64,000 bases of DNA, taken from the NCBI GenBank assembly GCA_008632985.1, contig QPGO01000009.1:62001-126000 (forward strand), in the 5' to 3' direction. Numbering within the stretch: position 1 is the first letter of the stretch; the number at the start of each line of letters is the position of its first letter. Position numbers and translations under genes: made by a program. Source of the DNA: Psammoneis japonica (lineage: Eukaryota). Positions 59,895 to 64,000 of the stretch are shown here, one piece after another. Under the pieces are notes generated by a model that searched no databases, had not been told where the DNA came from, and saw only the letters and a list, made by a program, of their open reading frames with translations.

Positions 59895-60309
59895 TGCAAC
59901 ATGCGTTGTCATGCATGCATTGTGGGTGTGTGTCTGTGTGTTGGACAAAAGTGTGTTTCAATCGCACGTCAATCGTGGGTTCGTACGAAGTGCAGATCAG
60001 TCACACAGAAGCAATTGGATGTCGAGAATCGCAAATGCAATCGCACAATGATGTTGACATCTCATGTGTCAATGTCAATCGTGTCCGGACAATCTGTCGT
60101 CATGATCATGTTCTCCGAAAGGCCTTTTGTCTGTGGGAGCAGTGCAAAAGGTTCAGGCTGTTGAGAACCCGTTCGGAGAAACCCAAAATGATTGCGTGGA
60201 AACAATTCTCATGATTTTCACTTTTTGAACTTCGTTCCACTTTCGTTTGCACTCGTTCTTCGAGCATGGTGCATTGTGCACACACAATGCAGAAGGCAAC
60301 AAGTTCAAG

Positions 60310-61464
60310 ATGAAGCTTTCACCTCATGCAGCCAACGCCAAAACTTCGTCAAGGCAGGAGAAAATCGTCCCTCAACCGCTGGAATCGAACTCCGAGCCGA
60401 AGAGCCTCAAACCGAGCCAGCACCTCAAGATGGAGCAACGTTTTCATCCCGAGAAGAAGGACAGCCGCACCTGCACCATCAATGTTGAGTGCTGCAAGAA
60501 ACAAGGTGTCCCCAAGTTCATCGAATTTCTCAAGAGCTACGATCAACTTCTGGTGGGCCAGAACATCAGGAAGCAATCTGACAAGTTTCGTCTCATGCAC
60601 ATGTTGCTCCAAGGAGACGCCCTGCGTGCTTTCGAGAATGCGGCAGCGAACCTTGAAGACGAATCTGCGGAAGGAAGCTTCGAGAAATGCCTGCAACATC
60701 TCACGAGGCATGTGTTTCCCAAGAACGCACTTTCGGTGCAGAAACGTCATTTGCGTCGTGATCTCAAGAAGCCGGAGTCCATGAAAGCACGCAAAATTGC
60801 TGCTTGGGTCCAGGAAGTCAACGAAGATCTCAAGTTCTGTCCTCCCTTTGGGAAGGAACAGAAGATCGAGGACGACGAGCTCAAGGACATCCTCTTCAAC
60901 CTTGCACCTCGAAAGTGGCAGCGTCAGTCGACCGTCCAGGGTTTCGAAATTTTGAAACACACCTGTGACGAGCTGGCTGAGTTCTTGGAGCGCCTGGAGG
61001 TCGCAGAAGACACATTTGATGGCATTCATGCCAAGGCTGATGGCAGTGGCGGCACTGCATCAAAAGCCAAGAGTGGTTCCCAACGTGGTTCCAAAAATGG
61101 TCACCAACATGGTGCCGAAAAATCTCAGTCCGAGAAGTGGTGCATTTTGTGCGAGAAATCCACTCACAACACGGACAAGTGCTGGTCGATCAAAAGACTT
61201 GCGAAAGAACGCCGCGGGAATTATGAACCCGACCCGAAACGGCACCGTTCAAATGGCAATCGCACGTGGTCTCGTCGCGACAACGACAACGCCGCTCGCA
61301 AAGAAGAGTTGAATGCTGTGGCGATCCAAGCAGTTCAAAAAATGCTCAAAGCGAGTTCTTCGAACAACGACAAGAAACACAAGAGCAAAGATTGTGATTC
61401 TGACACCCTTGACGAGGAAAATTGTCAGTTTGAAAAAATGACGCGCAGTGATTCCGAGGAATGA
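60310..61464 (+). CDS. gag: Gypsy Gag with a CCHC zinc knuckle
   Basis: CILCEKSTHNTDKC (CX2CX4HX4C); ATG shortly after the LTR. Confidence 0.85.
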   Translation: MKLSPHAANAKTSSRQEKIVPQPLESNSEPKSLKPSQHLKMEQRFHPEKKDSRTCTINVECCKKQGVPKFIEFLKSYDQLLVGQNIRKQSDKFRLMHMLLQGDALRAFENAAANLEDESAEGSFEKCLQHLTRHVFPKNALSVQKRHLRRDLKKPESMKARKIAAWVQEVNEDLKFCPPFGKEQKIEDDELKDILFNLAPRKWQRQSTVQGFEILKHTCDELAEFLERLEVAEDTFDGIHAKADGSGGTASKAKSGSQRGSKNGHQHGAEKSQSEKWCILCEKSTHNTDKCWSIKRLAKERRGNYEPDPKRHRSNGNRTWSRRDNDNAARKEELNAVAIQAVQKMLKASSSNNDKKHKSKDCDSDTLDEENCQFEKMTRSDSEE

Positions 61465-64000
61465 CTTGCACCGCAAGAGGAGTCTTGCACTCTGCTGGAC
61501 ATTGGGAAGCCCAGAAAAAGGGCCAAAGTAATTCACACTAGTCCAGCAGTCGTCGCCTGCATGAACACTTCATTGGGCAAGGCGAAAAATGAGCCTCTGT
61601 GTGTTCTCCTTGATGGCGGAACATCGTCAACCACAATCTTGCGCAAATTCATGCGGAAACTCAGAACAAAAGCATCCGCCACCAAACTCTGGGAAACCAA
61701 AGGAGGGCTCTTCACGACTGACAGCCGATGTAAGATCCAATTCTCCTTGCCCGAATTTGACAAACACAAGATGATTGAAACAACGGTGTGTGTTGACAAC
61801 TCCCCTTCTTCTTCGAGTCGTTGTGATGTGATCATGGGACGCGACTTAATGTCAAGTCTTGGGACAATGTTGGACTTCTCGAATGAAGAAATTAAGTGGG
61901 AAGATGCAACTGCTCCTGTGAAGAATGTTGATGCACTCTTCGATGCCGATGTTTTTAAGTTGATTGCCGATCACATTGAGGAATCTCATGCAGTGATTGG
62001 TCTCAATGACAGGGTCAATCGGATCCTTGACTCAGACTGTCACGCTGCAAACCTCAACAATGTGACCGCAGCAGCTGCTCATCTAACTCCTGAAGAGCAG
62101 AAGCAGCTGAACTTCCTCTTAAAAAGATTTGAAAACCTTTTCGATGGTTCTCCAGGCAAATGGACCGGGAAACCGGTGGATTTAAAGTTGAAATCGGGCG
62201 TGAGTCCGCATCATGCCAAACCATTTCCCGTGCCACAAGCCTTGGAGGCGACTGCTCGTAAGGAGGTTGAAAGACTGTGCAAGTTGAAAGTCTTGAGAAA
62301 AATGGGTTGTTCTGAATGGGCGGCTCCAACCTTTGTTCAACCCAAGAAAAATGGCAGAGTTCGGTTCTCGTCCGACTTTCGAGAGCCAAACAAGAGGTTG
62401 GTTCGTGCTCCGTTTCCTCTGCCCAACATTCAGGATGTGCTGCAGAAGCTTGAAGGCTTCATGTGTGCAACGTCCCTGGATTTGAACATGGGATGCCATC
62501 ATGTCGAATTGACGCCGCGCGCACGTCGCTTGTGCACGATCGTCATGCCTTGGGGCAAATGTGAGTGCTGTAGACTCCCGATGGGAATCTGTGGAGCTCC
62601 AGATGTTTTCCAAGAGCACATGAGTGAGCTCATGGCAGGTCTGGAGTTCGTCAGAACTTGTGTTGACGATGTGTTGTGTCTTGCAAAAAGTGATTTTCAA
62701 GACCACCTCAAGAAGCTTGAAACGGTGTTCTTGCACCTGGAACAAGCCGGATTGAAGGTCAACGCCGAGAAGTCCTTTTTCGCCAAACCCGAAGTAGACT
62801 GTCTGGGCTTTCATGTCACCCGCAAGGGCATCAGCCCGATTCCAAAAAAAGCAGAAGCGATTCACGCGATCGCAACTCCCAAAACTCGCAAGGAATTGCG
62901 ACGCTTTGTCGGCATGATCAACTGCTGTCGAGACATGTGGCCTCGACGATCTCATGTTTTAGCTCCCTTAGCCAAACTCACTTCTACCCAAGTAAAGTGG
63001 CAATGGACCAAAACAGAACAAAAAGCCTTCGAAAACATGAAGCGCATCATCTCCAAAGATGTGCTGTTGTCACACCCGAATTTTAACATGCCCTTTGAGA
63101 CATGTGCCGATGCTAGCAAATCTCAATTGGGGGCGGTTGTTACTCAGAAAAACCGACCAATTGCCTTCTACAGCCGCAAGCTGAATGGAGCGCAGACGCG
63201 TTGTGCTACAACGGAAAAAGAGCTGTTGTCCACAGTGGAGACGTTAAAAGAGTTCCGAAATGTGCTGTTTGGCCAACAGATAAACATGTGCACGGATCAC
63301 AAAAATCTCACACACAAAAATTTCACAACGGACAGAGTCATGCGTTGGCGTCTAATGATAGAAGAATGCAGTCCCGAAATGATGTACCTTGAGGGCAAGG
63401 CAAATGTTGTCGCAGACGCGATTAGCCGACTTACTGTGAAGAAAATAGGAAACCCTCAGCACAGAAGAGCTAGCTGAAAAGGTCCTGCCAAAATCCTACG
63501 ACAATGTCTTTCCGTTAAATTACAAAGTTCTTGATTCTGAACAAAAACGGGATAAAGACATTCTCTCCCAATTGTCAAATAAGACGTTTCATACGAAGAC
63601 TTTTCGTGGAGGCGAGCGAGACCGGTTGCTCACATGTCATAAGGATAAAATTGTCGTCCCGAGGACGTTACAAAAGGCAGTGATAGATTGGTGTCATACA
63701 TGCCTTCTTCACCCTGGCATAAATCGAACAGAAGAAACAATCTCACAACACCTATGGTGGTCCACCTTACGTGAAGACATACGAAAATACGTGTCGAGAT
63801 GTGAGACGTGCCAAAAATTCAAAAAGAAACACAAGAAATGTGGACATTTACCTCCCAAGTGCGCAGAATCCGCACCATGGGAACGACTGTGTGTGGACCT
63901 TGTTGGGCCATACAAAACACGTCGTAAGGGAAAGAAGAAACCCCTGGTCCTGAAATGTTTGGCTGTGATCGATCCAGCAACCGGATGGTTTGAAGTTGTG
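61465..64000 (+). pseudogene. pol: Gypsy Pol (protease, RT, RNase H, integrase), inactivated by missense hypermutation and a frameshift near 63450
   Basis: LLDGGTS, ATSLDLNMG, CVDD (for YIDD), ADAS, TDHKNL, KANVVADAISR; HHCC and PWERLCVDLVGP in the downstream frame. Confidence 0.93.

Follow-up and report, generated by a model that had tools for sequence, protein, structure and literature searches.

A Ty3/Gypsy retrotransposon depleted of TpA, and further TpA-free blocks, in a 64-kb stretch of Psammoneis japonica DNA

The end of a 64,000-nucleotide stretch of Psammoneis japonica DNA (contig QPGO01000009.1 of assembly GCA_008632985.1, positions 62,001 to 126,000 of the forward strand; hereafter the window, with positions counted from its first letter) contains the first four kilobases, counted from the 5′ end, of a Ty3/Gypsy long terminal repeat (LTR) retrotransposon, here called copy B, in which the dinucleotide TpA has been almost completely replaced by TpG or CpA. 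The element continues past the end of the window and its 3′ LTR lies outside. Its parts all read along the plus strand, beginning with a 5′ LTR (59907-60273) and a gag-like open reading frame (ORF) of 405 aa (60247-61464) that has no Pfam match and an observed to expected (O/E) TpA ratio of 0.03. These are followed by a pol ORF for protease, reverse transcriptase (RT) and RNase H (61465-63477), whose frame is open and crippled by missense changes, and by an ORF with the zinc-binding Integrase_H2C2 domain of Pfam (63449-64000), which stands in a different frame from pol and runs off the window. Within pol, the 638-aa ORF at 61561-63477 matches RVT_1 at residues 261-419 and RNase H (RT_RNaseH, RT_RNaseH_2) at residues 482-602. 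Other copies of the family have 8 extra bases behind position 63447 (depth 528/1941), and it is the absence of these bases from copy B that sets the integrase frame apart from the RNase H frame.

Near the other end of the window is element A (3390-8112, plus strand), another copy of the family and an older one. It has LTRs of 367 bp with TG..CA ends (3390-3756 and 7746-8112), the first of them homologous to the copy B LTR at 71-77% identity, a 4-bp target-site duplication, GGAG (3386-3389 and 8113-8116), and a degenerate pol with stops. These LTR ends and the duplication, together with the Pfam domains of copy B in their expected gene order, place the family in Ty3/Gypsy. Part of element A forms an unmutated island (5901-7190; 74 TpA, O/E 0.68, GC 40%, several stops), which serves below as a reference for copy B. 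Immediately upstream of copy B are two further family remnants, an inverted partial LTR copy (59629-59896, minus strand) that is 91% complementary to 60006-60273, and an older, diverged fragment of the RNase H/integrase junction (59122-59480, plus strand) that is TpA-free and 69% identical to 63265-63621.

The coding damage in copy B falls on one residue above all others. The original prediction, made from the letters of this DNA alone, had noted that the 638-aa pol ORF has only two Tyr and that conserved Tyr positions read Cys or His. The ORF was found with 2 Tyr, and the stop-to-stop frame at 61465-63474 has 2 Tyr and 25 Cys in 670 aa; Tyr makes up 2.8-5.3% and Cys 0.7-2.1% of all 120 listed relatives (1093 matches in all). 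We aligned the pol frame to the best 60 of these 120, which are 51-61% identical to it, and kept the 368 of 670 columns that had 40 or more residues and a consensus of at least 70%. At the 19 columns where the 60 relatives conserve Tyr, copy B has Cys 11 times, His 4 times, Phe twice and Tyr twice. Other conserved residues are largely intact (Phe 16/16, Pro 22/22, Gly 19/20), and Tyr is kept at 2/19 columns versus 279/349 for the remaining residues (Fisher p = 7e-10). The reported change of the RT catalytic motif from YIDD to CVDD was likewise seen (62659-62670, plus strand, TGT GTT GAC GAT), at columns that are Y in 100% and I in 73% of relatives; both changes are A>G after T. The protease motif DSG reads DGG, and missense changes have wrecked the motifs of RT, protease and RNase H alike.

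The nucleotide changes behind this pattern share one direction and one context. Between 59895 and 63400, TpA is scarce (29 versus 227.5 expected) and CpG common (184 versus 208.4), as had been stated, and both TG (302 versus 200.2) and CA (303 versus 236.9) are raised. Among the 368 conserved pol columns 87 have changed, 65 by a single base and 22 by several (set aside); 12 of the 65 are ambiguous, leaving 53 unambiguous changes. These comprise 26 A>G (24 after T, 2 after A), 9 T>C, all before A, and 18 scattered over ten further kinds, with the result that 33/53 are single steps from TA to TG or CA. Relative to context frequencies in the unmutated island, a T before A>G and an A after T>C are both enriched (p = 6e-18 and 5e-6, respectively). 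Direct comparison of the island with copy B gives the same direction: the 67 TpA sites of the island that could be aligned read TG 23, CA 13, TA 11, CG 2 and other 18 in copy B, so 36/67 have become TG or CA, and TpA is the least conserved dinucleotide between the two (11/68, or 16%, versus 43-72% for the other 15). The island also keeps Tyr (YYRD, YTDH) opposite CCRD and CTDH of copy B. When tabulated by context, a check that the original prediction had itself proposed, substitutions are thus enriched for TA to TG or CA in both comparisons, and its claim of A:T to G:C change at TpA on either strand holds, with the LTR comparisons described below in agreement.

Since TG and CA occur in similar numbers in the copy B block (324 and 340), both strands must have been affected. 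Because A>G outnumbers T>C in pol by 24:9, a strand bias was considered. It was dropped, as the imbalance arises through ascertainment (a T>C change at a codon boundary never alters the residue), and neither the Tyr codons (Y>C 11 versus Y>H 4, p = 0.12) nor the TG/CA counts support a bias. TpA is its own reverse complement, and an attack on T is for that reason indistinguishable from an attack on A.

The loss of TpA extends well beyond copy B. The original prediction had placed it at 59895-63400; depletion there stands, but its extent does not, as the TpA-free block runs from 59150 to 62960, the tail of copy B including the integrase ORF (62961-64000) is only partly depleted (O/E 0.48), and four further blocks are present in the window. 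Together the five sharp-edged TpA-free blocks cover 17.2 kb and contain 67 TpA, where the host O/E would give 587 (Poisson 8e-165). Their edges are resolved to within a few hundred bases; the reference levels are 0.57 for host DNA (range 0.54-0.78) and 0.87 for rRNA genes. The block at copy B (block 5) has 17 TpA, where 245 would be expected by composition and 140 at the host O/E (O/E 0.07; Poisson 2e-39). Within copy B the depletion fades from 5′ to 3′, with O/E of 0.00-0.03 at 60001-61500, 0.12-0.20 at 61501-63000 and 0.44-0.47 beyond. Block 1 (3265-5900; 25 TpA, O/E 0.14) takes in the 5′ LTR, gag and 5′ pol of element A together with 125 bp upstream of the LTR, and these 125 bp outside the element lack TpA (p = 0.009). 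Block 2 (7195-9402; 5 TpA, O/E 0.03) covers the 3′ end of element A with its 3′ LTR and continues 1.3 kb beyond. The remaining two are block 3 (12959-17010; 17 TpA, O/E 0.07), which includes a tandem duplication (13029-13996 and 14087-15035) and an RWD-domain ORF, and block 4 (44341-48959; 3 TpA, O/E 0.01, CpG 0.25), which adjoins the 3′ end of the large subunit (LSU) rRNA gene and includes a run of 2721 bases without TpA. For TG and CA the O/E is 1.74/1.62 in block 2, 1.70/1.56 in block 4, 1.50/1.31 in block 5 (where CpG is at 0.86) and 1.52/1.33 and 1.50/1.35 in the others, values that are given per dinucleotide and differ in kind from the combined Rho of the preprint discussed below. GC content is 47-52% inside the blocks versus 40% in the unmutated island.

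Gypsy sequence is present in blocks 1, 2 and 5, and blocks 3 and 4 have no recognisable mobile gene. Confinement of the process to transposons, as originally proposed, is therefore contradicted by the block with the RWD ORF and by the block downstream of the LSU rRNA 3′ end. In a Pfam scan of 62 ORFs from blocks 2-4 the RWD domain was the sole match above the cut-off, the rest being weak chance matches. The RWD ORF (16176-16766, minus strand; Pfam E 3e-6) has no Tyr. Its peptides AICEQD and GCPEKRP resemble Tyr-to-Cys changes at the usual RWD motifs, and the ORF may represent a host-type gene overtaken by the mutation of its block. A satellite-like array (16833-17753) with periods of 14, 38, 52, 96 and up to 340, and the core GAATTCACACGGGTGAATTT, overlaps block 3 at its 3′ end over 16833-17010 and continues past it, with TpA returning inside the array. 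Block 4 is strongly A/G-rich on the plus strand, contains an N gap (44990-45126) and is filled on both strands with overlapping ORFs that match no family.

Genes outside the blocks have kept their TpA, among them repeated ones. A complete rDNA unit (49472-55421, minus strand; LSU 49472-52875, 5.8S 53223-53377, small subunit (SSU) 53617-55421) is flanked by two TpA-free blocks and by host genes. A CNNM-domain gene is present as two copies 8.2 kb apart (27045-28861 and 35267-37102), which are 99.2% identical over 1782 bases with normal TpA. As the rRNA genes and this 99%-identical duplication have been spared, duplication alone cannot be the trigger, and simple "repeat-induced" targeting does not fit.

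The effect of this mutation on reading frames is distinctive. TAA and TAG together fall to 0.1-4.6 per kb within the blocks, and TGA stays steady at 17-26 per kb. Change of TA to TG or CA yields TGA only from TAA, hence it cannot create new stop codons, and with TAA and TAG nearly all lost and TGA kept, pol is open yet dead and overlapping ORFs abound in blocks 3 and 4. The expectation that elements would be killed by missense without creation of stops is in this way borne out by the lost motifs and the stop codon counts.

The few TpA that survive are not a random sample of their contexts. Of the 67 in the five blocks, 16 stand in TTAA versus 54/1356 in host DNA, a six-fold increase (p = 3e-8). 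Settings of the form A-TA or TA-T account for 10/67 survivors versus 605/1356 in host DNA (p = 8e-7), and ATAT has no survivors. These skewed contexts indicate a process that favours alternating A/T and avoids T-TA-A, a preference that may stem from recognition by an enzyme or from how easily such steps open.

The LTRs of a single element are identical at insertion, and their later divergence allows the mutations to be timed. Those of element A differ at 26 bases, made up of 8 doubles in which one LTR reads TG and the other CA (TG|CA), 3 TA|TG, 1 TA|CA, 4 CpG transitions, 1 other transition and 1 transversion. Since two initially identical LTRs now differ at 12 TA-type sites, mutation must have taken place in the chromosome, after insertion, and this divergence together with the balance of TG and CA means that the main cause cannot have been editing of RNA or cDNA ahead of integration. 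A comparable mixture is seen among the 25 mismatched bases of the inverted LTR pair at copy B (6 TG|CA doubles, 2 TA|CA, 7 CpG transitions, 4 other transitions). In the duplicated CNNM-domain gene, used as a control from host DNA, there are 0 TG|CA doubles among 14 mismatches in 1782 aligned bases.

We had also considered the TG|CA doubles as proof of TpA ancestry and dropped them in that role, as a CpG origin is possible and a four-copy alignment could not polarise them. TpA ancestry of the doubles has indirect support: CpG mostly survives in the blocks and TpA does not, and a CG state was found at 1/8 of the doubles in the four-copy alignment. CpG O/E is 0.66-0.86 in four blocks (0.25 in block 4) versus 0.99 in host DNA, and the tandem duplication of block 3 has 21 CpG transitions versus 8 TG|CA doubles. 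CpG decay is clearly a second, weaker process in the blocks.

Other copies of the family were found among contigs of the DNA run X1, of which 2870 pieces could be placed on 56001-64000 at 90-100% identity, 639 of them matching at 99% or more; so many pieces across this range imply that the family has many diverged copies. Compared with the window, these contigs vary at 131 places (G>A 46, C>T 32, T>C 23, A>G 16, transversions 14). Among the 40 of these 131 that were listed, 12 are G>A inside the element, and 10 of the 12 fall at TG, where the other copies have TA (p = 8e-4). At 61823 and 63290, among the listed variants, the other copies regain a Tyr codon. The original prediction named, as one finding that would refute it, active members of the family with native Cys or His at these sites; the copies found here carry TA and, at the two places named, Tyr.

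A metagenome scan with the mutated pol returned 2 loci, both with normal TpA (O/E 0.79 and 0.81), and thus gave the signature no environmental support. These relatives (L001, 11-328, and L002, 270-582) read NMGCHH or NMCTDH like copy B, in residues that may be isolated changes or natural variants. As their contigs were retrieved through those very peptides, they do not count as independent evidence. Eighteen further runs, seventeen of them recorded as RNA and mostly metatranscriptomes, each share about a tenth of the query words, which we read as the SSU rRNA part and not as evidence of habitat.

The genes of the host look diatom-like, to judge from an ORF with an MFAP1 domain (19729-21387). 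Every named organism among its best 120 matches is a diatom, including Fistulifera, Fragilaria, Cyclotella, Chaetoceros and Skeletonema, at identities of 43-48%, as between diatom orders; most of the matches are unnamed. No match is identical, so the collection searched does not include the organism's own proteins, and the window does not come from Bigelowiella natans, the alga discussed below. A flavoprotein ORF had no close match with a name, and a further search with MFAP1 yielded only generic clusters of that protein. In the flank of copy B, contigs of the RNA-like run X2 cover 56280-58786 and define GT..AG introns at 56497-56606, 56907-56990 and 57431-57506; the GT..AG joints of this run in the flank span 74-108 nt, and its coverage ends before 58938. 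The same flank has an internal duplication (56546-57015 versus 57100-57539, 93% identical over 437 bases) upstream of a pseudouridine synthase ORF on the opposite strand. Elsewhere, four inverted-repeat pairs (573-1425 versus 24038-24805) are 84-91% complementary at a distance of about 23 kb, in TpA-normal DNA.

The original prediction knew of no described eukaryotic system with this signature, a statement overtaken by a preprint on the chlorarachniophyte Bigelowiella natans (Mettrop et al., bioRxiv 10.64898/2026.01.13.699255), which reports an identical one. In mutation-accumulation lines of B. natans, TpA is hypermutated to TpG or CpA: 231/302 new mutations fell in integrated giant-virus and virophage regions, and 230/231 were A>G or T>C, all of those on TpA. 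The process was seen in 11/15 lines, at a rate 1000-fold above background and at about 1e-7 to 1e-6 new mutations per site per generation in culture, and TpA-depleted coding sequences were enriched in reverse transcriptase and DDE domains (bioRxiv 10.64898/2026.01.13.699255). The preprint proposes adenine deamination by an ADAT2-like protein, the sole published proposal for the signature, and its text is without mention of diatoms, stramenopiles, retrotransposons or LTRs. In the literature searched, the signature was reported in no diatom or other organism besides that preprint.

The likeness between the two cases includes restriction to TpA, nearly pure A:T to G:C change, formation of both TpG and CpA, confinement to discrete regions, and a loss of TpA that is probably matched by a gain of CpA and TpG. 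It also includes the foreign origin of the regions struck in an otherwise ordinary nuclear genome, and RT domains among the TpA-poor sequence. The hosts and targets differ, in that the host here is diatom-like (a stramenopile) whereas B. natans belongs to Rhizaria, and LTR retrotransposons and other repeats stand in place of giant-virus and virophage inserts. Erasure is also more complete here (O/E 0.01-0.14 versus a Rho of 0.45 in the B. natans giant-virus region), and the effect of extended context and the LTR-pair proof of action after insertion go beyond the B. natans report.

Ascomycete repeat-induced point mutation (RIP) offers a more distant parallel, as it too mutates mobile repeats in place, with a lethal load of transitions at one dinucleotide and possible leakage into flanks. 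Unlike RIP, which changes C to T mostly at CpA, makes TpA and stops and lowers GC, the process here destroys TpA, raises GC and makes no stops; TpA in the window is removed and not raised, and the direction is opposite to that of RIP, as had been claimed. ADAR, which acts on repeat RNA, and APOBEC3, which acts on retroelement cDNA, are animal deaminases directed against mobile elements, as a deaminase, if that is the agent, would be here. Their substrates are RNA or nascent cDNA and they edit a single strand ahead of integration, whereas the changes described here affect both strands of integrated DNA after insertion; APOBEC moreover gives G>A instead of A>G. TG and CA can also come from the decay of methylated CpG in transposons, but this route leaves TpA in place and cannot make Cys or His codons out of Tyr codons. 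Diatom retrotransposons are CpG-methylated and some diatoms have Gypsy elements, and the part of that study consulted gives no such mutation pattern (Maumus et al. 2009, PMC2806351). Proteins restricted to stramenopiles, predicted to combine a deaminase with a SAM domain and Tudor repeats (Iyer et al. 2011, PMC3239186), are candidate enzymes for the TpA process.

Taken together, we are confident that the signature is genuine and came about in situ, and the best overall explanation, which we hold to be probable, is that copy B was inactivated by an in-place, targeted mutation of TpA to TpG or CpA. Copy B would have been intact when it inserted and would have been inactivated afterwards in the chromosome, where the T:A pair of a 5′-TpA-3′ step would become C:G, giving TpG from one strand and CpA from the other. 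The substrate is integrated DNA, in sharp-edged blocks of 2-4.6 kb that have lost roughly 90% or more of their expected TpA, with A-TA or TA-T settings erased most fully and TTAA surviving best; several repeat-derived blocks are struck, and neighbouring genes and rRNA genes spared. Such a process is more probably enzymatic and targeted than not, and an enzyme recruited to silenced chromatin as a defence against mobile DNA would account for it. The leading candidate would be a DNA adenine deaminase that converts A to inosine, which is read as G, although adenine deamination as the chemistry is a possibility that we would put somewhat short of evens. In kind, the process matches the one observed live in B. 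natans.

Several points weigh against this reading. The spectrum comes from one window, two diverged copies (66% identical) and 40/131 listed variants, and a background of other changes is present, the relatives being only 51-61% identical. TG|CA doubles can derive from CpG as well as TpA, and CpG transitions are frequent in the blocks. The rRNA genes, though repeated, are unaffected (O/E 0.87), and the island of element A may be either a real protected patch or an assembly mis-join within a multi-copy family. The run X1 may be the assembly's own sample, so that its reads agree with the assembly without giving independent support, and its contigs drop rare variants. The diatom-like identity of the host follows from named matches of one protein.

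The closest alternative keeps the in-place process and changes the base attacked, with for example a dioxygenase of the TET/JBP type oxidising thymine to 5-hydroxymethyl- or 5-formyl-uracil and so leading to T>C, which appears as A>G on the opposite strand. Oxidised thymine can mispair with G, and every counted event fits T as well as A, TG and CA being similar in number. The sequence gives no preference for T over A, and the one published proposal names ADAT2-like adenine deamination (bioRxiv 10.64898/2026.01.13.699255); we regard thymine attack as unlikely. A further alternative dispenses with a dedicated enzyme and has unrepaired silent chromatin passively gathering a TpA lesion or a polymerase or repair error, since TpA steps within alternating A/T runs unstack most readily. 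Flank-dependent survival, with no ATAT and TTAA up six-fold, is what DNA flexibility would predict if the supposed link to flexibility holds, and the finding that 11/15 B. natans lines were mutated (bioRxiv 10.64898/2026.01.13.699255) fits a state-dependent process, which need not be enzymatic. The same source gives a rate 1000-fold above background, however, and O/E values of 0.01-0.14 meet values of 0.57-0.87 at sharp edges, with an untouched island inside a mutated element, which together make passive damage improbable, and a little more so than attack on thymine.

If instead the RNA (by an ADAR-like enzyme) or cDNA of the element had been edited before integration, copies would have been born mutated. 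The retroelement target and the liking of ADAR for U 5′ of the edited A (bioRxiv 10.64898/2026.01.13.699255) would suit this. It is set against TG and CA within one copy, LTRs of element A that have diverged at TA-type sites, the TpA-less 125 bp outside the LTR (p = 0.009) and the involvement of blocks 3 and 4, which have no retroelement match; the B. natans targets are integrated DNA viruses, and ADAR is described as restricted to animals (Iyer et al. 2011, PMC3239186). Editing of this kind is accordingly very unlikely. Less probable still is a native composition in which the family avoids TpA or UpA, as many RNA viruses and mRNAs do, and has Cys and His as its normal residues. Host DNA is itself TpA-poor (O/E 0.57), but catalytic residues have been lost (YIDD to CVDD, DSG to DGG) along with 17/19 conserved Tyr, other copies and the island carry TA and Tyr, and the 120 listed relatives are normal in Tyr. 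At the bottom of the scale we place an artefact of assembly or sequencing: a multi-copy family makes a consensus error or mis-join conceivable and the window does contain an N gap (44990-45126), yet 639/2870 of the read-contig pieces on 56001-64000 match at 99% or more, the flanking genes and rDNA are TpA-normal, and an error of base calling would not restrict itself to blocks or to one dinucleotide.

Relative to these alternatives, a targeted in-place process acting on TpA also invites a broader, more tentative proposal, to which we give almost even weight: that diatoms and chlorarachniophytes share a DNA-editing defence that erases TpA from silenced mobile DNA, is aimed by chromatin and favours A-TA-T over T-TA-A. 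On this proposal the aim would be chromatin state rather than repetition, as the rRNA genes, the recent gene duplication and the island are spared and yet the RWD gene is reached.

On a practical level, users of such assemblies should be aware that loss of TAA and TAG fills the blocks with long, spurious ORFs in several frames, and that Cys or His in place of Tyr misleads gene prediction and domain searches. What is new in this study is the timing after insertion, the anatomy of the blocks, the preference for flanking bases and the near-saturation reached on LTR retrotransposons. The flanking preference, the block edges and the unmutated island provide a sequence-level handle for testing candidate enzymes, and as genetic tools are established for diatoms, knock-outs of candidate deaminases or dioxygenases are feasible in that group.

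To our knowledge, until 2026 the sole known defences that mutate integrated DNA were fungal systems of the RIP type, which act on C. The present case adds another phylum, and LTR retrotransposons as targets, to a process described once before, and suggests that this process is not a curiosity of one species. Should the shared defence prove true, it would be old or widespread in the SAR (Stramenopiles, Alveolata and Rhizaria) supergroup, and its enzyme would rank as the first found in nature to edit adenine (or thymine) in chromosomal DNA for genome defence.

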